Assembly (NCBI GenBank): GCA_022703055.1 | Contig: JAKLEP010000001.1 | Span: 346,850 to 410,849 of the forward strand | Reading direction: 5' to 3' | Origin: Candidatus Omnitrophota bacterium | GTDB lineage: Bacteria > Omnitrophota > Gorgyraeia > VGKH01 | Length of the DNA stretch: 64,000 nt | Shown: piece by piece, positions 19,938 to 53,404 of the stretch | How positions within the stretch are numbered: position 1 is the stretch's first letter | How the letters are laid out: each line of letters starts with the position of its first letter | Notes under the pieces: generated by a model | Databases searched by the model: none | Seen by the model: the letters and a program-made list of their open reading frames with translations, nothing else | Told to the model about the DNA's origin: nothing | Made by a program: the position numbers and the translations under genes

Positions 19938-19967
19938 GCCGAGCCACCTTTATTTCGGTAGCTCGGC
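19938..19967 (-). terminator. Candidate riboswitch expression-platform terminator hairpin
   Basis: Minus-strand GCCGAGCTACC-GAAATAAA-GGTGGCTCGGC forms an 11 bp stem including one G-U. It is followed by the A/U-rich ATTTATATTATATAATT, between the aptamer and the SD. Confidence 0.5.
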
Positions 19968-20000
19968 TGTCAAATTGGCTTTATGAGTTCTGCCCTTACG

Positions 20001-20103
20001 TTATCGGTGCGCCCGGCGATCGATTTCGGCCTTGCTCTTTTAAAGCCTTTAGACCCGTGGCTTTGCGTCTTCGTCTTTCGGCGAATTTGCCTTTTCGGAT
20101 AAG
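20001..20103 (-). promoter_or_regulatory. c-di-GMP-I (GEMM-I) riboswitch aptamer
   Basis: Minus-strand TTATCCG-AAAA-GGCAAA-TTCGCC-GAAA-GACGAA-GACGCAAAGCC-ACGGGTCTAAAGGC...GCCGGGCGCACCGATAA. It has the conserved GGCAAA, a GNRA-capped helix, GACGCAAAGCC, a CUAAA receptor-like bulge, and a closing P1 (TTATCCG/CCGATAA). Confidence 0.8.
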
Positions 20104-32019: not shown

Positions 32020-33061
32020 TTTAGCTACGGATAAGAAAAAAGGGATTCTAGCCGCGATCTTAAAGACCCTTTTGTTTCTTTTGTCTTTGTTGTATGGCCT
32101 GATAATCAGAATTATTTTGTTCTGTTATAAATCCAAGATTCTTAAAACCACCCGTTTGGATACCAAGGTCGTCAGTATCGGAAATATTACACTGGGCGGC
32201 ACAGGAAAGACTCCGCTAGTTGAATTGGTGGCAGAATTTCTTTCGGGCGCGGGATACAAAGTAGCAATCCTGACCCGCGGATACAAAAAAGAGGCCACAG
32301 CCGATAAAAAATCGGACGAAGCGACGATGCTGGCCGCTAAATTGCCAAAGGTGCATATTTTGGTGGGGCGTAATCGCATAGAAAACGCCAAACAAGCTAT
32401 AAAAGACTATAATACGGATTTGATTTTGCTCGATGACGGCTTCCAGCATTGGAGATTGCACCGGGATTTGGATATAGTCGCAATTGACGCCATCAATCCT
32501 TTCGGAAACAGAAATATGATACCAAGGGGAATTTTAAGAGAGCCGCTTTCGTCACTAAAAAGAGCCGAGATGTTTGTTATTACCAAGTCAGATTTTGGCA
32601 AAGACAATGTCGGGGCAATAGAATCATTCATAAGCTTTATAAAACCCAAGGCAGTAGTGGCCCAGACAATTCACAACCCGGTATTCTTATACCGGATAGA
32701 TAATAACCAAGTTTTAAATTCGTCTTTGATGCGCGATAAAAACATCTGCCTCCTGGCAAGTATCGGAGACCCCGCGAGTTTTGAGGCGATGATCGTAAAG
32801 ATGGGGTTGACTCCTGAGTTAAAATTTTATTTTACCGACCATTATCAGTATAAGGAGCGCGATTTGGCAAGGGTAGTCGCAACCTGCAAAGCGCGGGAGA
32901 TCAATACCATCATCACCACGGAAAAAGACATCCCAAGATTGAAGTCATTGAAACTTGATTTCTTGAATGGGCTTACTATCCTTGCACTGCGCATAGGAAT
33001 TAAATTCACGAAAAATGAAGAAGCATTTTTTGAAAGATTATTGTCTGTTTGCCACCGCTAA
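32000..33061 (+). CDS. lpxK: Tetraacyldisaccharide 4'-kinase
   Basis: 353 aa. P-loop VVSIGNITLGGTGKTP. Also ILTRGY and DDGFQH. Confidence 0.9.
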   Translation: MREYLYSLATDKKKGILAAILKTLLFLLSLLYGLIIRIILFCYKSKILKTTRLDTKVVSIGNITLGGTGKTPLVELVAEFLSGAGYKVAILTRGYKKEATADKKSDEATMLAAKLPKVHILVGRNRIENAKQAIKDYNTDLILLDDGFQHWRLHRDLDIVAIDAINPFGNRNMIPRGILREPLSSLKRAEMFVITKSDFGKDNVGAIESFISFIKPKAVVAQTIHNPVFLYRIDNNQVLNSSLMRDKNICLLASIGDPASFEAMIVKMGLTPELKFYFTDHYQYKERDLARVVATCKAREINTIITTEKDIPRLKSLKLDFLNGLTILALRIGIKFTKNEEAFFERLLSVCHR

Positions 33062-34970
33062 GGTCTTGGGCTGGATTTTTATGGCTCTGCCGATGAGTGT
33101 GTCTCTGTCTCTTGCCAAGGCTATCGGGACCGTCGGATACTACCTGGACTTTAAGCATAAAAGAGTAGTCTATGCCAATATCAAGACCGCATTCGGAAAC
33201 TCAAAAACTTTGCAGGAAATAAACGTCATAACCAAAAAGACTTTTCAGAATTTCTGCCAGCATATCGTCGAAGTGCTATGCCTGCCTAAGATTACACACG
33301 GTTATATCGAAAAATATGTTCGATTTGAAGATAAAAGTATAATCATGGATGCCATCAAGGAAAACAAGGGCCTGCTTGCCTGCAGTATGCATTTTGGCAG
33401 TTGGGAATTATCGTTTATTTTGTGCGACAGGCTTGGCCCGCCGTTTAAAATCATCGCCAGGGAACATGAAAAATATTCCAAGACCGACAAGTTGCTCAAC
33501 TCCTATCGTCAGATGCGTCCGGAAAGTGTTTTGTATCGCGGCGAAAGCCCCAAAGAAATGATCAAGGTATTGCAGAACAAAGAAATATTAGGCCTGGTTC
33601 TGGATCAGGGCGGCAAGAGCGGACAATTGACCGAATTTTTCGGGCAAAGCGCCTCCATGCCCACAGGCGCTTTACGATTAGCTTTAAAATTTGATGTCCC
33701 GATAGTAATGGTATTTATAATCAGGGAGCGCGGGCCATATCATAAGATTATTTTGAGGCGGTTAGAATTGATTAAGACTCAAGATGCCGAGAGGGATATT
33801 GAGCTAAATCTTAATAAGATTATGCGTATGGGCGAAGACATAATTCGGCAGCACCCCGAACAGTATATGTGGTTTTACAAAGTATGGAAATACTCCGATC
33901 AAAAGAAAATTGTTATTTTAAACGATGGAAAAATCGGCCAGCTAAGGCAAAGCCAGGCAGCGGCAGGCATTTTATCGGCAGAGCTAGCAAAAAACAATTT
34001 TAAAGCTTCCATAGAAATAATGGATGTCAGATTCAGGAATAATTTTTCCAAAGCCATGATATCTTTGTGTTCTGTCCCGGCGGCGAAACGCCATTGCATG
34101 GGTTGCCTGTGGTGCCTGGAGAAGTTTCTGGAAAAATCATCCTACGAGAATTTAGCCAGGATGAAAGCCGATTTTATCATCTCCAGCGGCTCAAGCCTGG
34201 CTAATGTGAATTATATTTTATCCAATGATAGCCTGGCAAAGAGTGTGTCGATTTTACGGCCGAATCTGCTGGGCACAAATAGATTTGACCTGGTGGTCAT
34301 GCCCAGGCACGATAATCCGCCGCAAAGAGACAATGTAGTTATAACAGACGGCTCATTAAATTTAATCAATAAAGATTATTTAAAAAAGCAGTCTGAAAAG
34401 ATTGCTTTGCGCTATCCTAATCTTAGCCAAGATAAAGCCAGGACAATAGGCGTCCTCTTGGGAGGAGATACAAAAAATTATAAGATATCTATTGAGGCGG
34501 TTAAAATCCTGATTTCAGAATTAAAAGATATTTCGCAAATATTAGACTTACAGATTTTATTGACCACATCAAGAAGGACTCCGAATAGCGTAGAGAACCT
34601 TATCATAGAGAGCCTGGGAAGTTTGCCAAAATGCAAGTTGCTGATAATCGCCAATGAAAACAATATTCCCGAGGCGGTGGGCGGAATATTGGGATTGTCC
34701 GATATAGTTATAGTAAGCGATGATAGCATTTCCATGGTTTCCGAGGCGGCTAGTTCCGGAAAATATGTAATTGTTGTTCAAACCGCCAAAGAATCCAGCT
34801 CAAGGAAGCACAGAAGATTTTTACAATCATTAAGCAGCCAAGAATATATTTTCCTGGTAAAACCGGATAAAATATCAGATACTATTAAACAAATCTTTAA
34901 CAATCAACCTAAAGTTAAAAAGCTGGCTGATAATGAAGCTTTGGCCAGTGCAATCGGAAAGATATTATGA
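33015..34970 (+). CDS. Fusion of a LpxL/HtrB-type lipid A late acyltransferase and an ELM1/GtrOC1-like putative glycosyltransferase domain
   Basis: 651 aa. The N-terminal ~295 aa has the acyltransferase HX4-type context (CSMHFGSWE). The C-terminal ~350 aa begins KIVILNDGKIGQLRQSQAAAGIL, typical of bacterial ELM1-like proteins. Confidence 0.6.
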   Translation: MKKHFLKDYCLFATAKVLGWIFMALPMSVSLSLAKAIGTVGYYLDFKHKRVVYANIKTAFGNSKTLQEINVITKKTFQNFCQHIVEVLCLPKITHGYIEKYVRFEDKSIIMDAIKENKGLLACSMHFGSWELSFILCDRLGPPFKIIAREHEKYSKTDKLLNSYRQMRPESVLYRGESPKEMIKVLQNKEILGLVLDQGGKSGQLTEFFGQSASMPTGALRLALKFDVPIVMVFIIRERGPYHKIILRRLELIKTQDAERDIELNLNKIMRMGEDIIRQHPEQYMWFYKVWKYSDQKKIVILNDGKIGQLRQSQAAAGILSAELAKNNFKASIEIMDVRFRNNFSKAMISLCSVPAAKRHCMGCLWCLEKFLEKSSYENLARMKADFIISSGSSLANVNYILSNDSLAKSVSILRPNLLGTNRFDLVVMPRHDNPPQRDNVVITDGSLNLINKDYLKKQSEKIALRYPNLSQDKARTIGVLLGGDTKNYKISIEAVKILISELKDISQILDLQILLTTSRRTPNSVENLIIESLGSLPKCKLLIIANENNIPEAVGGILGLSDIVIVSDDSISMVSEAASSGKYVIVVQTAKESSSRKHRRFLQSLSSQEYIFLVKPDKISDTIKQIFNNQPKVKKLADNEALASAIGKIL

Positions 34971-35257
34971 ACCCCGCCCTTCCTAAAGAATGGTATTATG
35001 TGTATCTACTTGCTAGCGGTAAGACATCTTGGATTTATATAGGCTGTACCAATGATTTAAAAAATAGATTGAAAGAGCATAGCGAAGGGAAGGTTTTTAC
35101 AACTAGAAAGATGCTACCTGTAGAATTAATATATTTCGAGGGATATAGGTCTAAGGACCATGCATATAAAAGAGAGAAAAATCTTAAAGCTTATGGCAGC
35201 GGTTTAGCAAAACTGAAATCCCGGCTCGGAATAGAAACGAAAGGAAGGGCGGGGTGA
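34967..35257 (+). CDS. Small GIY-YIG nuclease family protein (YhbQ/COG2827-like), copy 1
   Basis: 96 aa. Motif YYVYLL...WIYIGCTNDLKNRLKEH...R. ATG overlaps the upstream stop (ATGA). Its stop overlaps the downstream GTG start. Confidence 0.8.
   Translation: MNPALPKEWYYVYLLASGKTSWIYIGCTNDLKNRLKEHSEGKVFTTRKMLPVELIYFEGYRSKDHAYKREKNLKAYGSGLAKLKSRLGIETKGRAG
34972..35254 (+). mobile_element. Inverted-repeat-bounded GIY-YIG unit (CCCCGCCCTTCCT ... AGGAAGGGCGGGG)
   Basis: A 13 bp perfect inverted repeat brackets essentially the whole GIY-YIG ORF. The same CCCCGCCCT/AGGGCGGGG arms occur as ORF-less hairpins at 41489, 42067 and 51299. Confidence 0.5.
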
Positions 35258-37341
35258 ACATACTTCAGATTCTTCCAGAGCTAAATGTCGGCGGCGTTGA
35301 GACCGGAACGGTCGATTTCGCCAGGTACCTGGTGAAAAACGGCCACAAGGCAATTGTAGTCTCAAACGGCGGAGACCTGGTCGGAGATTTAGAGCAGGCA
35401 GGGGTTTTGCATTATAAATTGCCGGTGCACGAGAAATCCATATTTACCATTATCAAGATGATCAAAGAGCTGACTTTGATCATCAAGAAAGAAAATATCG
35501 ATATCGTCCACGCCCGCTCCCGCGTTCCCGGCTGGATCGGATTCTTCGCCGCAAGAAATACCGGGACGATTTTCCTCACCACCTGCCATGGCCATTATTC
35601 CAAACATTTCCTTTCAAAAGTCATGGGTTTCGGAAAACTGGTGATTGTGCCCTCAAACGTTATCGGCAGGCATATGATAGAAGATTTCGGCGTCCATCAT
35701 CAGCGCATAAGATTGATTCCCCGAAGCGTAGACCTGGAAAAATTTACTTTTTCGCCTTACGATACCAGGCCTAAGACTGGTTTTATCGTCGGGATGATCG
35801 GCAGGATTACTCCTTTAAAAGGCCATGCCCATTTCCTGAAGGCGATTTCCAAGCTCATCAGAACACTTCCCTACTTAAAAGTTTGGATTGTCGGCGACTC
35901 CCCGCAAAGTAAAAAGATTTACCGCGAAGAGGTCGAGACTCTTGCCCGACGCTTGGGAATTTCCCACTGCGTGCAATTCTTGGGCAACAGAAAAGATATC
36001 CCCCAGATTATTTCCAAATTGAATATCGTAGTCCTTTCCACGGTGACCGAAGAGGCATTCGGACGGGTGATCATCGAATCCCAGGCCTGCGGCACGCCGG
36101 TTATCGCAACAAGAGTGGGAGGAGTCGTTGACGTAGTCGAGGACGGCGAGACCGGAATCCTGGTCCCTCCCAAGGATCCCGACGCCATGGCATCGGCCAT
36201 CTTGAAGCTACTTAAGGATAAAACTCTGGCGGAAAAACTATCGCTTGCCGGACGAAAAAACGTGGAGGAGAAATTCACTATCGAGATGATGTCTACCGAA
36301 ACGCTAAAAGTCTACCAGGAGGCTGCAAGCACCAGAAATATCCTGGTTATTAAAATCGGCGCTTTAGGCGATGTGATTCTTTCTATTCCCTCCATAAGGG
36401 CGATAAGAAAGAAATACCCCGAAGCCAAGATTTATTGCCTGGTGGGTAAAGAGTCCCGCCCGATTTTACAGCGCTGCCCGTATCTAAACGGCATCATCAT
36501 TTATGATTATAAAGAAAAAGACAAAGGCATATTCGGCCCGATTAATATTATAAAGGAATTGAGAAAATATTATTTTGATATGGTCATTGATTTGCAGAAT
36601 AACCGCAAGAGTCATCTGATTAGTTTCTCGACCATGTCCTCAAGCCGCTACGGATACAACAATCGCAAGTTCAGTTTCTTGTTGAACCACAAGGTTGAGC
36701 CGACAAAGGAAGATACCCCGCCGATAGAGCACCAGTTTAGGACGCTTGGGCTTTTGGGCATCGCCAAAGAAGATACATCCCTGGAATTATGGCCTTCCGA
36801 AGAGGACGAGGAATACATACGGATTCTTTTAGAATCAGAATGGGTATCAGGCAAAGAAAAAATCATAGGGATAAATTTAGGCGCCAGCAAAAGATGGCTC
36901 ACCAAATGCTGGCCGCTAGAGAATTTTGCCCGCCTTTCGGATAGGTTGTCCAAGGAAAATATCAGGGTGATTATCACTGGCGCGCAAGATGATTTGGGCG
37001 CTGCCTCAAAAATCCAGAAGATGGCGACTTCAAAACTTTTGAATTTCGCCGGCAAGACTTCGATTATGCAGCTGGCGGCATTGATCAGAAAATGCAGTGT
37101 TTTTATTAGCGCCGATTCAGCTCCTCTGCACGTCGCTGCGGCAATGAATACTCCCATCGTGGCTTTGTTCGGCCCGACGTCGCCCCAGAGGCATATGCCT
37201 CCGGCGAAAAAAGCAGTTGTGGTAAAGGCAAATGTAATCTGCAGCCCCTGTTATAAGCCTAAATGCCAGAAAATGGATTGCATGAATCAGATTAGCGTGG
37301 ATGAAGTTTATATGGCGGTAAAAAAACTGATTAAAACATGA
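35254..37341 (+). CDS. Fusion glycosyltransferase, GT4 (N-terminal) + GT9 heptosyltransferase-like (C-terminal)
   Basis: 695 aa. GT4 motif EAFGRVIIESQACGTPVIATRVGG..EDGETG. GT9 motifs VIKIGALGDVILSIPSIRAIRKKYP and DSAPLHVAAAMNTP. Confidence 0.75.
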   Translation: MNILQILPELNVGGVETGTVDFARYLVKNGHKAIVVSNGGDLVGDLEQAGVLHYKLPVHEKSIFTIIKMIKELTLIIKKENIDIVHARSRVPGWIGFFAARNTGTIFLTTCHGHYSKHFLSKVMGFGKLVIVPSNVIGRHMIEDFGVHHQRIRLIPRSVDLEKFTFSPYDTRPKTGFIVGMIGRITPLKGHAHFLKAISKLIRTLPYLKVWIVGDSPQSKKIYREEVETLARRLGISHCVQFLGNRKDIPQIISKLNIVVLSTVTEEAFGRVIIESQACGTPVIATRVGGVVDVVEDGETGILVPPKDPDAMASAILKLLKDKTLAEKLSLAGRKNVEEKFTIEMMSTETLKVYQEAASTRNILVIKIGALGDVILSIPSIRAIRKKYPEAKIYCLVGKESRPILQRCPYLNGIIIYDYKEKDKGIFGPINIIKELRKYYFDMVIDLQNNRKSHLISFSTMSSSRYGYNNRKFSFLLNHKVEPTKEDTPPIEHQFRTLGLLGIAKEDTSLELWPSEEDEEYIRILLESEWVSGKEKIIGINLGASKRWLTKCWPLENFARLSDRLSKENIRVIITGAQDDLGAASKIQKMATSKLLNFAGKTSIMQLAALIRKCSVFISADSAPLHVAAAMNTPIVALFGPTSPQRHMPPAKKAVVVKANVICSPCYKPKCQKMDCMNQISVDEVYMAVKKLIKT

Positions 37342-41470: not shown

Positions 41471-41488
41471 TGTAATCTTTGCGGTTTA

Positions 41489-41620
41489 CCCCGCCCTTTC
41501 TTTCGACAAAAACTCTGTTCTAGAAAGGGCGGGGTTTAATTCGCAGACGCCCCGATAAATCGGGGCTACGGCTTACGTCGTTGACACTCCGTAAGTCGTC
41601 TGCTCATTAAAGGAGGCAAC
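41489..41620 (+). repeat. Composite structured intergenic element, copy A (empty GC-rich hairpin + three-stem module + SD)
   Basis: 13 bp stem CCCCGCCCTTTCT/AGAAAGGGCGGGG with a 20 nt loop, then TTTAATTC. P1 is GCAGACG/CGTCTGC, P2 is CCCCGA-TAAA-TCGGGG, P3 is GGCTTACG/CGTAAGTC. Ends TCATTAAAGGAGG-N5-ATG. Confidence 0.7.
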
Positions 41621-42064
41621 ATGAAAAAGATTCTATCAGTGATATTGGCGCTGAGTTTAGTATTGGTATCCTCGGTATTTGCCAATGAAGAGAAGTGCCA
41701 TGTAGCGCAAAAGACGGATGAGGCGCAAGTAGTAAATACGCAAGAATCCAGCCGTAATCTGCAAGCAGGGAATCCGTCTAACCCGGATGAGGTTAGCCAG
41801 GGATTGATTCGCAAATACGAAGGTGCAAATTCACAAAAGCCAACAAAACCCCGCCAAGCCATTAATAAGTCGGTAAATAGTGCAAAGGTTAAGCCTGGAC
41901 GGCAGATACCTGATTCCGGGGACCAGACCACCGACAGCGAAAAAAACGCGGTAAGGATTAATGATTTGACAAATAAAAAGCAGACGGCTGAAGGTTTGCT
42001 TTTAAACGAAATGAACAAAACTCACGAAACCCAAAGCTCGGTAGTAAATAACATAAAACCGTAG
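41621..42064 (+). CDS. Hypothetical secreted, low-complexity (Q/N/S/K-rich) protein
   Basis: 147 aa. Clear signal peptide MKKILSVILALSLVLVSSVFA. SD AAAGGAGG is supplied by element copy A. Confidence 0.55.
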   Translation: MKKILSVILALSLVLVSSVFANEEKCHVAQKTDEAQVVNTQESSRNLQAGNPSNPDEVSQGLIRKYEGANSQKPTKPRQAINKSVNSAKVKPGRQIPDSGDQTTDSEKNAVRINDLTNKKQTAEGLLLNEMNKTHETQSSVVNNIKP

Positions 42065-42066
42065 AA

Positions 42067-42170
42067 CCCAGCCCTTTCTTTCGACAAAAATTCTGTTCTA
42101 GAAAGGGCGGGGTTAATTCGCGCAAACAATTTACGTCAGCTACGCTTCCGTAAATTGTGCGCTCATTAAT
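42067..42170 (+). repeat. Composite structured intergenic element, copy B (degenerate, no SD)
   Basis: Hairpin CCCAGCCCTTTCT/AGAAAGGGCGGGG with a loop nearly identical to copy A. Then TTAATTC, a long hairpin GCGCA(AA)CAATTTACG/CGTAAATTGTGCGC, and TCATTAAT. Confidence 0.65.
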
Positions 42171-42220
42171 CGGGAACCGGTCCTGAGGAAGGAAAATTTC
42201 TAAAATATCGGGGGATAATA

Positions 42221-42835
42221 ATGTATTACACAAAAATAACAATATTTGAAAATAATAGAAGGATACAACAGCTGTATGCATTTATCGATCTTATTGGAAG
42301 GTACTTTCAAAATACAAGACATGATGGCTTTAGCTTTGAGCTTATTGAGAATGAAGAAGCGCTGACAATAAGAATGGAAATTGATCGAATACTTACTCGA
42401 ATATATAGAATTGTAATAGCCTCTGGTGTTAATCCGGTAATACAATATACGCCTCCTCCTGCAATTGGTGGATATATACGAGATATAGATGTAATTCATA
42501 ATATTTTTAATTTAAGCAGGTTTGAAATTAGACCAACAATTTTATTAGATTATATCTACAGGGCAATTGGCATATACGAGGATAATAGCAAAAGTGCGTT
42601 GATTAGAACTTTTAATCCGTTTTTCTGGTTAGGATTATTATTAGATTATATTGTTAGTTTACCTTTTAGATTTATGGGCATAATAGGATTTAATCAGAAC
42701 AAAGTTGAGTCTTCATTTATTGGTAAGATTGTTAAAGGTATATTATATTTGATTACAGTATTTGCTTCATTTTTGACGATTCTACACTTACTTGGTTTAC
42801 TAGACAATTTTAAGAATTATTTCAGTAGTAAATAA
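42221..42835 (+). CDS. Hypothetical protein with a cytoplasmic N-terminal domain and two C-terminal TM helices
   Basis: 204 aa. TM candidates FFWLGLLLDYIVSLPFRFMGIIGF and ILYLITVFASFLTILHLLGLL. Very AT-rich coding sequence. No recognised family. Confidence 0.6.
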   Translation: MYYTKITIFENNRRIQQLYAFIDLIGRYFQNTRHDGFSFELIENEEALTIRMEIDRILTRIYRIVIASGVNPVIQYTPPPAIGGYIRDIDVIHNIFNLSRFEIRPTILLDYIYRAIGIYEDNSKSALIRTFNPFFWLGLLLDYIVSLPFRFMGIIGFNQNKVESSFIGKIVKGILYLITVFASFLTILHLLGLLDNFKNYFSSK

Positions 42836-42941
42836 ATTTTTAGGTAAGGAAAATTCCAGAGTCTAATAATTTAATAAAGATTCCCGAATAAAATGGGGAA
42901 CGCCCTCGATAACTCATAAAGAAGGAAAGGAGCCAATCTTG

Positions 42942-44441
42942 ATGATACAAAAAGTCGATGATTATTTGGATGCATTCGACCTTGGAGCATCAACTGCTGA
43001 GAAAGATACGCTTTTGGAGATCGCAAAAATTGAGACTCAGGAATTTTATGATTTATATCTGCATGATAGGATAGATATAGTTCGAGGCACGAAAGGATCA
43101 GGAAAGACAGCTTTATATAGGTTGTTTTTTTTCTTGAGAAATTTATTAATCGATAAAAATAAACTATATTGCATATTCGGAATTGAGGCAACTGGTGATC
43201 CCCTTTTTAAGCTCTTCCAAGATGAATTTAAGTTATATTCAGAGGTTGAATTTGCAAACTTTTGGGGCATTTATTTTATAGTTTTAATATACAAGTTAAT
43301 TTTTAATGCCGATAAGTTACGAAATCAGATCGGCAATGAAGATATAAATAAAATCGATGAGACATTATCAAGAATGGGATTAAAAATTCATAAAGATGGC
43401 TTTATCTTTAAAGACATACAGTGTTCAATTTTAGATTTGATGAGAAAAACAAAAATGAAATTAGGTGTTGAAACTAAAATAGACCAGATATCAGGTTTGC
43501 CAATTTCATTTACGCCCGCAATTGAATTAGAGCCCGGTACGATAGATGAAGTTCATAATAAACCGATTTATCTTATTGATTTTAAGAATATGATCATATC
43601 GATTCTCGAAAAACATAACATAAAAATTTGGATAATGTTAGATCGGCTTGATGAAGTTTTCCCCCATCGTAGCGAAGTAGAAAAAAATGGTTTAAAAGGA
43701 CTGCTGCGAGCATCGTATAATTTTTCTTCTCATTCGTTCCTAAGAATAAAAATATTTTTGAGAGACGATATATTCGAATATTTAGCCGCAGATGGTTTTA
43801 CTGCTTTAACACATATAACCGATAGATGCTCAGCTTCAATGTCTTGGTCAAAAGATGATATTTTATATTTAATTGTCAAAAGAATAGCCGCTATTCCTTA
43901 TTTGCGCTATGAATATGGAATAGATTCTGATAAAATTGATAAAGATAAGTCATATCGTAGCGAGGTGTTTTATAAAATTTTCCCTCCTTGCGTCGGAAAA
44001 ATCGCCACCTTTGATTGGTTATTTGATTCTTGTTCTGATGGAAATGATATAGTCACTCCGAGAGATATAATAGATTTTTTCAGATGCGCAAAGGCTTTTC
44101 AATTTAAGAAATTTAAACAAACTGGGCAACAACAAGAATATCTTATTGAAGAAGATATTCTTAAAAAATCGCTTGAAGCACTTTCTAAGCAGAAAAAAAA
44201 CATGTTTCTGTTTGCAGAATTTCCTCATCTTAAACAACATATATTAAAATTTGAAGGAGGATGTAGTGAGCACAACGCTGATTCATTAGAAAAACTTTTG
44301 GGAAGCGATTGGATTAAAATAGTAGATGAGCTCAAGTCAATCGGGTTTTTGAAACATGTTCCAAAAAGTGGTGCGTATAAGATTCCTATAATCTGGAGGC
44401 AGGGGTTAAGTATTAAAAGAAGAAAAGCTTTTGAAAAATAA
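42942..44441 (+). CDS. Uncharacterised P-loop NTPase (~499 aa)
   Basis: Walker A GTKGSGKT (nt 43086-43109). Walker B-like IWIMLDRLDE (nt 43626-43655). SD AAGGAAAGGAG. ATG 42942 is preferred over TTG 42939. Family not recognised. Confidence 0.7.
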   Translation: MIQKVDDYLDAFDLGASTAEKDTLLEIAKIETQEFYDLYLHDRIDIVRGTKGSGKTALYRLFFFLRNLLIDKNKLYCIFGIEATGDPLFKLFQDEFKLYSEVEFANFWGIYFIVLIYKLIFNADKLRNQIGNEDINKIDETLSRMGLKIHKDGFIFKDIQCSILDLMRKTKMKLGVETKIDQISGLPISFTPAIELEPGTIDEVHNKPIYLIDFKNMIISILEKHNIKIWIMLDRLDEVFPHRSEVEKNGLKGLLRASYNFSSHSFLRIKIFLRDDIFEYLAADGFTALTHITDRCSASMSWSKDDILYLIVKRIAAIPYLRYEYGIDSDKIDKDKSYRSEVFYKIFPPCVGKIATFDWLFDSCSDGNDIVTPRDIIDFFRCAKAFQFKKFKQTGQQQEYLIEEDILKKSLEALSKQKKNMFLFAEFPHLKQHILKFEGGCSEHNADSLEKLLGSDWIKIVDELKSIGFLKHVPKSGAYKIPIIWRQGLSIKRRKAFEK

Positions 44442-51248: not shown

Positions 51249-51470
51249 GGACACGGCTTATGGAGCGATAGCGAACATAAGTCGTGAGTCCGAACTTACC
51301 CCGCCCTCTAAGCGGAGCAAAGGGGGTGGAGACAATAAGTAAACCATACCCGGTTTTTCTATGCGTCATAGTGATACTTAAAGCATAGAGGGCGGGGTTC
51401 AATTCACAGACGGCTTCGCCTACGACTTACGTCGTTGGCACTCCGTAAGTCGTCTGTTCATTGAAGGAAA
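51249..51470 (+). repeat. Composite structured intergenic element, copy C (extra upstream hairpin, 77 nt loop)
   Basis: Upstream hairpin GGACACGGCTTATG...CATAAGTCGTGAGTCC. Arms CCCCGCCCTCT (51299-51309) and AGAGGGCGGGG (51387-51397), then TTCAATTC. P1 is ACAGACG/CGTCTGT, P3 is GACTTACG/CGTAAGTC. Ends TCATTGAAGGA. Confidence 0.65.
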
Positions 51471-51478
51471 ATGTTAAA

Positions 51479-52378
51479 ATGAACGCAACAGTCAAAAAGA
51501 TTGATGCCTGCAAGAGAGAAATGGTAATTAGCATACCCAAGGAAGTTGTCCAGAGTAAATTTGATGAAGTCTATAAGCTGATTCAGAAAAAAGCCCAGAT
51601 TAAAGGTTTTCGCGTCGGCACTGCGCCGATGCATCTGGTGCAATCGGAGCATAGCCAATTGGCCAGGGAAGAGGTCTTGAAGGATTTGATCCCCAATTCC
51701 TACAAAGAGGCATTGGAGAAGGAGAATTTGCTGCCGGTGGATCTGCCTGAAGTAACTGATGTATCATTCAAGGATGGCGGATTGACTTTTAAGGCTTCAT
51801 TTGAAGTCGTGCCGGAAGTCAAGATTAAGAAATACAAGGGATTAGAGGTAAAAAGGAAGAAAACCGCTGTCACCGACGAGGATATAAAGAAAAGCTTTGA
51901 ATTCCTGCGCAAATCCCAGGGCCTTGATGACAAAACCCAGATTGACGATACCTTTGCCAAGGGCTTAGGATATCCGAATTTGAAAGAATTAGAGGATACC
52001 ATAAAAAAGCAGATGGAATTTTCCAAGCAGCAGGAAGCCAGGAATGATATTGAAAACCAGATTGCCGAGCAATTGCTTAAGAATTCGGAATTGGATATCC
52101 CCCAGAGTTCGTTAACCAAGCAATTAGAGTATCTCCTGGAAGATACCAAGCAGCGCATGGCCCACCAAGGCGTTAAAAAAGAGGAAATCGATTCCAAAGA
52201 ACAGACGATCAAAGAGAAATTAAAGCCGCTGGCGGAAAATGACGTGAAATTATATTTCATCCTGGATAAAATCGCCGAGCTTGAGAATATAAAGGTTGAT
52301 AAGCCGGAGCACAAAACGGCCAAAGTCATGGAATTTTTATTAAAAGAAGCGAAATGGTCAAATGAGGACACAACTTAA
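51479..52378 (+). CDS. tig: Trigger factor lacking the PPIase (FKBP) domain
   Basis: ~299 aa from ATG 51479. Ribosome-binding signature GFRVGTAP in the N-domain. The N-domain runs directly into the C-terminal arm region. Located upstream of clpP. Confidence 0.75.
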   Translation: MNATVKKIDACKREMVISIPKEVVQSKFDEVYKLIQKKAQIKGFRVGTAPMHLVQSEHSQLAREEVLKDLIPNSYKEALEKENLLPVDLPEVTDVSFKDGGLTFKASFEVVPEVKIKKYKGLEVKRKKTAVTDEDIKKSFEFLRKSQGLDDKTQIDDTFAKGLGYPNLKELEDTIKKQMEFSKQQEARNDIENQIAEQLLKNSELDIPQSSLTKQLEYLLEDTKQRMAHQGVKKEEIDSKEQTIKEKLKPLAENDVKLYFILDKIAELENIKVDKPEHKTAKVMEFLLKEAKWSNEDTT

Positions 52379-52413
52379 GGAATGGAGTGACTTAAGTTGT
52401 CTGTCCGAATTTG

Positions 52414-52798
52414 ACCCTTGACATTTTATTTATGAAAGTTAATTCAATTTACTATTTTTATATATTAAAATGCAATGATGGTAGTAAATATTACGGTCAT
52501 ACCAATAATTTAGAAAAACGTTTTAAGGCTCATTCAGGTGGTCAGGTTTATTCTACTAGAGATAGACGTCCGCTTAAATTAGCTTACTGGGAAGAATTAG
52601 AAACTCGTTCAGAAGCTTTTAGAAGAGAAATGCAATTTAAGAATGGGAGAACTAGGAAAGAAACTATAGAAAAATTAATAGATTCTTTTCCTCAGGTAAA
52701 ATGTCAAGGGTTTAATTCGCAGGCGCCCCGATAAATCGGGGCTACGACTTACGTCGCTAAAGCTTCCGTAAGTCGACTGCTCATTAAAGGAGGTAGTA
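52414..52798 (+). mobile_element. Composite element copy D carrying GIY-YIG ORF 2 inside its hairpin
   Basis: 15 bp perfect inverted repeat ACCCTTGACATTTTA (52414-52428) / TAAAATGTCAAGGGT (52697-52711) brackets the ORF. Then TTAATTC, P1 GCAGGCG/CGACTGC, P2 CCCCGATAAATCGGGG (identical to copy A), P3 GACTTACG/CGTAAGTC, and TCATTAAAGGAGG before the clpP ATG. Confidence 0.55.
52432..52734 (+). CDS. Small GIY-YIG nuclease family protein (YhbQ/COG2827-like), copy 2
   Basis: ~100 aa. Motif YYFYILKCNDGSKYYGHTNNLEKRFKAH...R...E. Start uncertain (ATG 52432 or TTG 52411, no clear SD). The C-terminus reads through the right repeat arm into P2. Confidence 0.7.
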   Translation: MKVNSIYYFYILKCNDGSKYYGHTNNLEKRFKAHSGGQVYSTRDRRPLKLAYWEELETRSEAFRREMQFKNGRTRKETIEKLIDSFPQVKCQGFNSQAPR

Positions 52799-53404
52799 AT
52801 GGATGAGAGAATGCAGACCTTAGTGCCAATCGTTGTAGAGCAGACCGGTAGAGCCGAGAGGGCATACGATATTTATTCGCGCCTGCTTAAAGACAGGATC
52901 ATTTTTGTCGGGACTCCCGTCGATGATATGGTGGCAAATTTAATCATCGCCCAGATGCTTTTCTTGCAGATGGAGGATGTAAATAAAGACATAAATCTTT
53001 ATATCAATACTCCGGGTGGCCTGGTTACTGCGGGGCTTGCAATTTATGACACGATGCAGTTTGTCAAACCTGATGTCTGTACATACTGCATAGGACAGGC
53101 TAGCAGCATGGGCGCACTTCTTCTTACCGCAGGCACAAAAGGCAAGCGCTATGCGCTTCCCCATTCCAGGATTATGATCCACCAGCCGTGGGGCGGGGTT
53201 CAGGGTCAGGCAGCAGACATATCTATCCAGGCCAAAGAAATTTTGCGCTTAAGAGACAAGATTAATGAGATTCTCGCCCAGCATACGGGCAAGCCGCTTG
53301 ATAAAATCCAAAAAGACACAGACAGAGACTACTTTATGTCTCCGGAAGAAGCCAAAGAATACGGATTAATCGACGAGGTAATAGCCTCAACCAAGAAAAA
53401 ATAA
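52799..53404 (+). CDS. clpP: ATP-dependent Clp protease proteolytic subunit
   Basis: 201 aa. Catalytic contexts GQASSMGA and MIHQP. Follows tig. Confidence 0.95.

Follow-up and report, generated by a model that had tools for sequence, protein, structure and literature searches.

The nuclease gene and its insertion site

We analysed a 64-kb stretch of Candidatus Omnitrophota DNA (contig JAKLEP010000001.1, positions 346,850 to 410,849), in which a small GIY-YIG nuclease gene is enclosed by inverted repeats between two lipopolysaccharide (LPS) genes. This stretch is referred to as the window, and all coordinates are window positions unless a locus identifier beginning with L is given. The open reading frame (ORF) of the nuclease (34967-35257, forward strand) encodes 96 aa and begins at the ATG that formerly served as the start of the glycosyltransferase gene that follows. 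Pfam assigned residues 10-74 to GIY-YIG (PF01541, E = 3.3e-13), and since a weaker match to T5orf172 (PF10544, E = 1.5e-4) overlaps the same residues, GIY-YIG is the only distinct domain; no NCBIfam family reached its cut-off for this ORF. The upstream host gene (33015-34970, forward strand, 651 aa) encodes a fusion of a lipid A acyltransferase (Lip_A_acyltrans) with an ELM1-like part, and the downstream host gene (35254-37341, forward strand, 695 aa, GTG start) a heptosyltransferase-like GT4+GT9 fusion. We refer to the boundary between these two genes as the lpxL/GT junction.

The initial annotation had described the ORF as lying between 13-bp inverted arms, and inspection of the coordinates confirmed this. 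The left arm, CCCCGCCCTTCCT (34972-34984, forward strand), codes residues 2-6 (NPALP), and the right arm, AGGAAGGGCGGGG (35242-35254, forward strand), codes KGRAG. The two are 100% complementary over 13 bp, or over 14 bp when A34971 and T35255 are included, with 257 nucleotides (nt) between them. Minimum-free-energy folding of 34950-35275 closed the whole ORF with the 14-bp stem both as RNA (z = -2.9) and as DNA. Directly outside the arms lies a TGAA direct repeat, the left copy (34968-34971, forward strand) providing the TGA stop codon of the upstream gene and the right copy (35255-35258, forward strand) that of the nuclease ORF. From the inverted repeat together with this direct repeat, the boundaries of the inserted element proper were set to 34972-35254 on the forward strand, 283 bp that consist of the left arm, the GIY-YIG coding body and the right arm. 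The nuclease ORF therefore begins outside the element, at the host gene's own ATG, and ends at the TGA of the second repeat copy.

Both overlaps with the host genes that had been noticed at first reading were found as described. The nuclease ATG (34967-34969) shares bases with the TGA of the upstream fusion (34968-34970), forming ATGA, and the GTG of the glycosyltransferase (35254-35256) is composed of the last G of the right arm and the TG of the nuclease TGA (35255-35257). The right arm also holds a Shine-Dalgarno (SD)-like AGGAAGG located 5 nt upstream of this new GTG, and the left arm holds its complement. The locus was identical in at least nine independent assemblies, including a 500-kb JGI contig and the Omnitrophota metagenome-assembled genome (MAG) GCA_028686955.1, and an assembly artefact is therefore ruled out. 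The only ORF of the element is the nuclease, and no transposase class (DDE, HUH, serine, tyrosine or Cas1) was matched in Pfam or NCBIfam. An integron attC-like cassette was also considered and rejected, as both an integrase and the GTTRRRY core are missing and the ORF lies within the hairpin. A scan of the window at Rfam gathering thresholds gave no family at the element or at the other hairpins described below, the only matches being tRNAs and a c-di-GMP riboswitch elsewhere.

Whether relatives carry the unit at the same junction had been proposed as a check of the insertion, and empty sites proved to be abundant. A metagenome scan seeded with the glycosyltransferase recovered 63 loci, and in 58 of them (glycosyltransferase identity 41-64%) the acyltransferase fusion directly adjoins the glycosyltransferase gene without a GIY-YIG gene. 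Approximately 28 of the 58 empty junctions read ...ATGAAC/ATGAAT/ATGAAA..., in which the stop of the first gene overlaps the ATG of the second, and the junctions of L134 and L104 read ATATTATGAACATA. These 28 show the predicted pre-insertion state; the in-silico empty junction of the window locus is ...GGAAAGATATTATGAACATACTTCAG..., and the empty site reads ...ATATT ATGAAC ATA.... The occupied junction of the window reads ATATT-ATGA-[ACCCCGCC...GGGCGGGG-TGA]-ACATAC, so that the 287 bp gained correspond to the 283-bp element plus one extra TGAA, with TGAA on both sides. The glycosyltransferase start was changed from ATG to GTG and the N-terminus of the protein (MNILQI...) was left untouched; orthologues start mostly at ATG, and a few at TTG or GTG. 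The comparison shows the element to be an insertion at the TGAA that overlaps the glycosyltransferase start codon, polymorphic in presence at a conserved site between conserved genes. The suggestion that translational coupling was preserved on both sides was borne out by the comparison, with ATGA overlaps at the empty sites and a restart at GTG in the window.

At the same lpxL/GT junction of another lineage (L132, 3718-4001) we observed an unrelated insert of 283 nt, which has no similarity to GIY-YIG and may encode a small protein on the opposite strand.

About 20 independent insertions of the same organization, here called group A, were found in MAGs of Omnitrophota, Planctomycetota and the candidate phyla radiation (CPR), and they read NTGAR, arm, ORF, arm, TGAR. 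TGAR flanks both arms in every group-A insertion recovered, and R was identical on the left and right sides in 16 of 16 elements that had been located by protein match and arm pairing alone, a procedure in which agreement of R was not required. Because the base after TGAR is not conserved, the direct repeat is 4 nt long, TGAR. In every group-A case the downstream ORF (80-696 aa) starts at an RTG overlapping the stop of the element. A long upstream ORF ends in the left ATGA in about 60%, and the remaining elements lie behind an SD-like sequence where an operon has its first gene. What all sites share is therefore the start codon of the gene downstream (ATG-A-R). Further insertions were located at argD/argF and rpmF/plsX. 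No sequence conservation beyond ATGAR was found at the sites of these insertions, and the exclusive start-codon location may therefore reflect survival rather than targeting, since at any other place the ORF would go untranslated or a gene would be disrupted.

Conservation, shortening and age of the element family

An exhaustive homologue search returned 298 cluster representatives at E <= 1e-10, and as only about ten of them are close, the NPALP/GRAG subfamily is small. The 30 closest homologues (58-86% identical; from Omnitrophota, a 'Sungbacteria' MAG and others) keep the MNPALPK N-terminus and the KGRAG* C-terminus. When genome collections were scanned with the family alignment, 80 loci were obtained. 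Roughly 35 of these have the ORF enclosed by an exact inverted repeat of 11 nt or more, whose right arm carries the stop codon at its outer edge. An association of the arm motif with GIY-YIG genes had been expected, and the arms indeed turned out to be a family-wide property of this GIY-YIG clade. Their sequences are specific to the lineage (ACCCCGCCCTTCCT; TCCCGCCCCTC; ACCCAGCCCCTCCT; TCCCGTTAGACC; TCCCCCACCTATCAAGGAT; and, in Verrucomicrobia, ACCCCGTGAGATA, among others), and the terminal peptides vary with them while complementarity is kept, for example MNPVRP...GLTG encoded from TCCCGTTAGACC/GGTCTAACGGGA.

This tendency was quantified using 23 distinct arm pairs, gathered with a filter of at most two arm mismatches; changes on both sides were present at 11 of 14 positions, 91% of the cells pair, and none of 500 shuffles matched this value. 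In a codon alignment of 14 close elements, the fraction of same codons at invariant residues with four- or six-fold degeneracy was 0.92 in the arms and 0.58 inside the ORF (Mann-Whitney, p = 8e-5). In the AlphaFold (AF2) model, residues 10-86 form a confident, compact, single GIY-YIG core; no secondary structure is seen in the arm-encoded ends (1-3 and 91-96), where pLDDT falls below 50. Because the peptides change while pairing is kept, synonymous sites are frozen and the tails are disordered, selection on the arms acts at the level of nucleic acid and not of the peptide. Complementarity that arose by chance or was driven by the peptides is contradicted by the covariation data. A strand bias of G·T wobbles in imperfect arms, which could tell which strand folds, was looked for; mismatches were too few and occurred in both directions. 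Of the 23 arm pairs, 16 carry AGGAAG, AGGAGG or GGAGG at the SD position of the right arm, as read from the alignment.

Two further arrangements were observed in distant relatives. In Verrucomicrobia (L044 2552-2842, L045 4977-5271 and L087), a hairpin-bracketed GIY-YIG gene has arms of ACCCCGT[GT]AGATA and flanks of TTY/RAA, and a stretch of host coding sequence (..VAFDL / VVAFEPEF..) is found twice, once to either side of the element. In CPR/Patescibacteria (L049, L074, L078 and L084), relatives of the nuclease lie directly upstream of a putative tRNA-Trp (CCA anticodon, judged by eye), with a duplicated tRNA 5′ half and a GC hairpin upstream of the nuclease gene.

Shortened and multiplied forms of the element were found at the same lpxL/GT junction of other species. 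L101 carries a 75-nt ORF-less unit with identical arms, which contains a 26-codon mini-ORF ending in the coupling TGA. L102 carries a short ORF-less unit with variant arms, and L105 one whose left arm has decayed. In L160, three units stand in tandem, namely two short hairpins and the full gene, joined by single TGAA repeats, and one mini-ORF runs through them as far as the nuclease gene, on whose GTG it ends. Such ORF-less hairpins with the same ends would be non-autonomous derivatives. The full unit of L160 is 94.2% identical in nucleotides to the window element, far above the 72-80% of the flanking genes, which indicates recent lateral arrival or conversion; the element is younger than its flanks. 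Elsewhere, L015 carries two identical full copies back to back.

Degenerate copies were also present. An allele from the same species as the window (L121 1089-1331, flanks 99.9-100% identical) has lost F44-G59, with the invariant E58 among them, through a 48-nt in-frame deletion in the nuclease gene, and seems to be degenerating; in L165 the copy has decayed and contains a nested mini-palindrome. Palindromes of this kind (28-30 nt, ATCCAGCCC...GGGCTGGAT) occur in frame inside GIY-YIG ORFs (L160 2572-2601, L165 ~1738-1765 and L016 4865-4892), where they give 'IYPAPARRSWIY'-type inserts of 10 aa in the beta1-beta2 loop (P0001, P0114 and L026-L028). They are found inside other elements as well, and look like a separate insertion family.

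Known relatives and candidate explanations

Residues that are invariant in the family (Y24, R34, H38 and E58, among others) are present in the window nuclease and are compatible with an intact GIY-YIG active site. In a sequence search of the PDB, which offers no Ssn structure, only UPF0213 and Slx1 proteins were matched, the best being the UPF0213 protein BH0048 (1zg2, E 9e-7), and fold comparison likewise gave UPF0213 and Slx1 as the nearest solved folds, with a TM-score of about 0.67 for Slx1. Slx1 is a structure-specific nuclease that cuts branched and stem-loop DNA. Among UPF0213 genes, yazA of Bacillus subtilis sits between trmNF and rsmI, and genes of this family are not known to have bracketing repeats or presence/absence behaviour.

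The most relevant known system is Ssn (cd10448), a family of GIY-YIG enzymes of about 94 aa which cut single-stranded DNA (ssDNA) next to a cognate hairpin (NTS/SRM), and whose genes are flanked by cognate hairpin repeats; a resemblance to insertion sequences (IS) and RAYT was remarked by its authors (Chenal et al., Nat Commun 2025, PMC11893778). As a proxy for Ssn we used a homologue from plasmid AZO_p3 of Azospirillum lipoferum 4B (L153 1380-1900), obtained by tblastn against plasmids (4 weak matches). It is a canonical Ssn-type gene located between sufB and sufC and flanked by four NTS/SRM hairpins that match the published motif (CGTCATCCCCGCGAAGGCGGGGATCCAG). In a homologue search seeded with this protein, no Neisseria entry was among the top 120. 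Separately, the sufB/sufC case suggests that the classical Ssn family, too, may have inserted into a housekeeping operon.

In profile comparison with hhalign, the window family matched the Azospirillum proxy with 97.4% probability (E 9e-12, 33% identity over 70 columns) and UPF0213 YazA with 97.3% (E 2e-11), so the Ssn proxy was no closer than UPF0213, nor UPF0213 than Ssn. The window protein gained 180 bits on the hidden Markov model (HMM) of its own family and 54 bits on that of Ssn, and it is without the C-terminal K-W-x-R-x-W-K...NPxW region of Ssn. The published SRM motif, HGTCWYN(0-2)YYVSBRHN(0-5)WNVSBRGN(0-2)RNCYNB, had no match on either strand of the 64-kb window (0.18 expected) and four around the Azospirillum control. 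Taken together, the HMM scores, the missing motif and the missing C-terminus place the nuclease, as far as sequence can tell, in a sister clade to Ssn with an architecture of its own rather than as a demonstrated member.

The two systems are alike in having a single-domain GIY-YIG protein of about 95 aa, a gene tied to a cognate inverted repeat that is also found elsewhere in the genome and co-varies with the nuclease lineage, and an IS- or RAYT-like look; genes of both can be wedged inside housekeeping operons, in the case of Ssn between sufB and sufC of Azospirillum. They differ in that Ssn genes have a complete, self-contained hairpin of 20-50 nt on each side, whereas here each flank is half of a single hairpin, the gene is the loop and the arms are translated. 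Insertion at a start codon, a TGAR repeat and empty sites are not reported for Ssn. The initial annotation knew of no description of such an arrangement for this GIY-YIG family, which holds only in part, as the sister family and its analogy to IS and RAYT were already known (PMC11893778). The literature search, beyond the Ssn paper and the T4 review cited below, retrieved no description of a GIY-YIG element that has terminal inverted repeats, duplicates its target site or inserts at a start codon.

With RAYT/REP-BIME and IS200/IS605 the element shares a nuclease gene bracketed by inverted palindromic repeats, ORF-less copies, tandem or nested clusters and a specific tetranucleotide target by the foot of the hairpin. 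Unlike these systems, whose enzyme is a HUH tyrosine (Y1) transposase, it encodes a hydrolytic GIY-YIG enzyme without covalent strand-transfer chemistry, and whereas IS200/IS605 have a subterminal hairpin at each end and no terminal inverted repeats, terminal inverted repeats are present here. The free-standing seg and mobE genes of T-even phages are similar in lying between conserved genes, in being present or absent among relatives, in overlapping start and stop codons and in having RNA hairpins that control translation; the start of T4 mobE overlaps the nrdA stop (UAAUGA), and hairpins sequester the ribosome binding site (RBS) of free-standing homing genes (PMC2988022). In contrast to the 96-aa nuclease with no second domain, the T-even enzymes are larger and multi-domain with DNA-binding modules, and their genes have no terminal inverted repeats and no ORF-less derivatives, and do not recreate the start codon of the neighbour. 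TIGR01453 (group I intron endonuclease) scored 17.8 bits with the window nuclease, versus a cut-off of 56.

From these results we consider, with a probability of roughly 0.7, that the locus carries a minimal selfish mobile element of 283 bp with 13-bp terminal inverted repeats and one GIY-YIG nuclease gene of the Ssn/UPF0213/Slx1 branch, whose ends are the substrate of the nuclease. The idea of a nuclease gene carried in the loop of a hairpin, after the logic of RAYT/REP or homing endonucleases, had been put forward at the outset and gains support from the empty sites and the family-wide arms. Two features of a classical IS are present, the perfect terminal inverted repeat of 13-14 bp and the 4-nt TGAR repeat.

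The proposed mechanism has an mRNA part and a DNA part. Because the nuclease ORF starts at the host ATG, it inherits the translation initiation signal of the host, here the coupling to the upstream stop. In the mRNA, the arms would pair and hide the new SD and start codon of the host gene, and the stem would be opened by the ribosome translating the nuclease ORF, or by termination and reinitiation at its stop. Expression of the glycosyltransferase would then require that the nuclease be translated, and the effect of the insertion on an essential operon would be close to neutral. At the DNA level, by analogy with Ssn and Slx1, the arms may pair when single-stranded or when extruded as a cruciform, and the stem foot may be recognised by the nuclease, which would cut beside TGAR. 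Through host repair or ligation the stem-loop would afterwards be copied or moved, either to further TGAR sites or into the same conserved junction of a related genome, and only insertions at start codons would stay expressed and harmless, which would explain the observed positions. Candidates for the DNA step are an ssDNA route similar in logic to IS200/IS605, microhomology-mediated copying, and homing into the same junction. The junction of an excision product, circle or hairpin, would read GGGCGGGG-TGAA-CCCCGCCC.

Several points weigh against a mobile hairpin element. Cutting at the arms and movement of the DNA are postulated by analogy with Ssn and Slx1. GIY-YIG enzymes hydrolyse DNA and cannot rejoin strands, and transposition therefore needs host functions; moreover, they usually leave overhangs of 1-2 nt and not the 4-nt stagger implied by a TGAR duplication. 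In L163 only TG is common to both sides of the junction, so that a target-site duplication, microhomology, or a 3′ TGA carried by the element together with a requirement on the target could each account for the repeat. Copy number is low for a transposon, with one full copy of the nuclease subfamily in the 64-kb window and mostly one at the loci of other genomes. The SD-like sequence of the right arm is missing in the subfamily with GTTAGACC arms, and the mismatch filter with which the covariation set was gathered has to be counted here as well. Finally, the three ORF-less hairpins of the window that share the arm core (see below) lie between genes and have no TGAR flanks, and a structured element, H2, follows each of them; hence they cannot be regarded as plain copies of this type of insertion.

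A mobile hairpin element with its ends as substrate nevertheless ranks first among the readings, and classical homing second. In the latter, which we regard as unlikely, the product of a free-standing homing endonuclease gene would cut the empty lpxL/GT junction or a nearby site in naive genomes, and the element would be copied in from an occupied allele by recombinational repair after DNA uptake. The inverted repeat would be not a substrate but an mRNA device by which translation of the host gene is maintained and expression of the nuclease restricted, like the RBS-sequestering hairpins of T4 seg/mob genes. Occupation of one conserved junction in several species by different arm subfamilies (window, L101, L102, L105 and L160) and insertion sites in conserved housekeeping operons fit homing well, but related elements also sit at many unrelated loci that share only ATGAR, and the reading does not predict a TGAR repeat with matching R on both sides. 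The element identity of 94% between two species whose flanking genes are 72-80% identical is expected after homing, and the degenerate alleles (L121) would belong to a cycle of gain, decay and loss; tandem arrays and ORF-less derivatives with intact ends, on the other hand, indicate that the ends themselves are recognised. The free-standing GIY-YIG and HNH genes of T4 also overlap the stop of a neighbour and use hairpins (PMC2988022). The 96-aa protein is, however, without the DNA-binding domain that known GIY-YIG homing enzymes need.

Less probable still is a domesticated Ssn-like nuclease, the relic of an old invasion that no longer moves and is kept for a host function, such as restricting hairpin-bearing incoming ssDNA or shaping recombination, as proposed for Neisseria SsnA/NTS, a precedent described in PMC11893778. 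The protein is indeed under purifying selection (70-86% aa identity with synonymous sites saturated inside the ORF), but the gene is missing from 58 orthologous loci, being confined to this lineage and a few others. While the invariant residues compatible with an intact active site and the low copy number agree with a retained function, strain-level deletion alleles, tandem arrays and an element much younger than its flanks do not. Hairpins of the same core exist elsewhere in the genome, as domestication would have it, and yet the published SRM motif is absent from the window.

That the complementarity is incidental, a by-product of terminal peptides (NPALP/KGRAG) needed by the protein or of a split GC-rich, terminator-like hairpin, can be dismissed as very improbable, for although the peptides are nearly invariant in the closest 30 homologues and this AT-rich genome often has GC-rich stems behind its genes, other lineages keep perfect complementarity with different peptides (MNPVRP...GLTG, TCCCGTTAGACC/GGTCTAACGGGA), synonymous sites are frozen in the arms only, the tails are disordered in the structural model and the hairpins are not scored as intrinsic terminators.

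As a kind, a small GIY-YIG nuclease with a cognate hairpin is already known, having been recently defined by Ssn. Judged from the comparisons made here, what is new relative to Ssn is the gene inside a single translated hairpin, the takeover of a start codon with the host start regenerated, the TGAR repeat, and empty-site evidence of mobility. It is conceivable, at somewhat less than even odds, that the mobile hairpin element represents a categorically new class of prokaryotic transposable element. It would then be the smallest autonomous mobile DNA known (~0.28 kb), with a hydrolytic GIY-YIG enzyme recognising the stem of its own translated repeats, TGAR start-codon targeting, and expression that is self-enforced by holding the host RBS and start in the stem.

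If the nuclease mobilises the hairpin, the GIY-YIG mechanism would join the short list of chemistries that move bacterial DNA, and Ssn-type ssDNA nucleases would gain a clear rationale as selfish elements, which was only hypothesised by the Ssn authors. Start-codon takeover is a compact natural route for a gene into an essential operon without polarity, in which the element borrows an initiation signal and gives a start codon and its SD in return. In terms of translation it resembles inteins and introns hiding within genes, and may be usable for synthetic operon design. Lineage-specific pairs of arm and nuclease are a would-be source of new sequence- or structure-specific ssDNA nucleases. In practice, units of 0.1-0.3 kb affect the annotation of MAGs, in that the start codon assigned to a gene changes from ATG to GTG and spurious extensions appear at the N-terminus.

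Other hairpin units in the window

The exact 9-mer CCCCGCCCT from the arms occurs in seven copies in the window, compared with 0.42 expected, and none of 100 shuffles reached seven. All copies lie in four inverted pairs, namely the nuclease element and three ORF-less hairpins that share a 10-nt core with it. The first of these hairpins (41488-41535, forward strand) has 14-bp arms, ACCCCGCCCTTTCT; the second (42066-42113, forward strand) is near-identical to it with one arm mismatch, and the third (51298-51398, forward strand) has 13-bp arms, ACCCCGCCCTCTA, and a 75-nt loop. The initial annotation had pointed to ORF-less hairpins with the same arm core at these three places; the shared core is real, and the signature of insertion is missing from them. 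In the terminator scan, the hairpins at 41488 and 42066 were not called intrinsic terminators.

H2, the structured element that follows these hairpins, is conserved in four copies of 55-75 nt (41536-41611, 42114-42169, 51399-51465 and 52712-52787). Its sequence runs TTAATTCGCAGACG..CCCCGATAAATCGGGG..CTTACGTCG..CCGTAAGTCGTCTGCTCATTAA and has no Rfam match. Each copy is located directly 3′ of a GIY-YIG unit or a hairpin and extends to the SD of the gene that follows; H2 may act as an RNA leader or a processing site, or may simply represent a further repeat element.

In front of the fourth H2 copy there is, in place of a short hairpin, a second GIY-YIG gene, which belongs to a different subfamily and is also bracketed by a hairpin (unit 52406-52734, forward strand; arms 52406-52428 and 52697-52719). 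Its ORF (52432-52734) encodes 100 aa (Pfam E = 1.2e-14) and is 40% identical to the first. The arms are 23 nt long, 91% complementary and unlike those of the first element in sequence, and the ATG is inside the loop. The gene is located between tig (trigger factor, 51461-52378) and clpP (52799-53404). Strains without it were sought via contigs with identical ClpP, and six of six such contigs carry it. This second bracketed gene strengthens the link between hairpin and GIY-YIG and shows that more than one type of element coexists in the genome.

Two minor features of the window were recorded in addition. A low-GC island (42001-44000, GC 0.32 compared with ~0.43 elsewhere) comes right after the two hairpin and H2 units, and contains ORFs without Pfam match (42221-42835 and 42939-44441). 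The c-di-GMP riboswitch mentioned above is a c-di-GMP-I-GGC match on the reverse strand (19953-20100), with 63 bits and above the gathering score.

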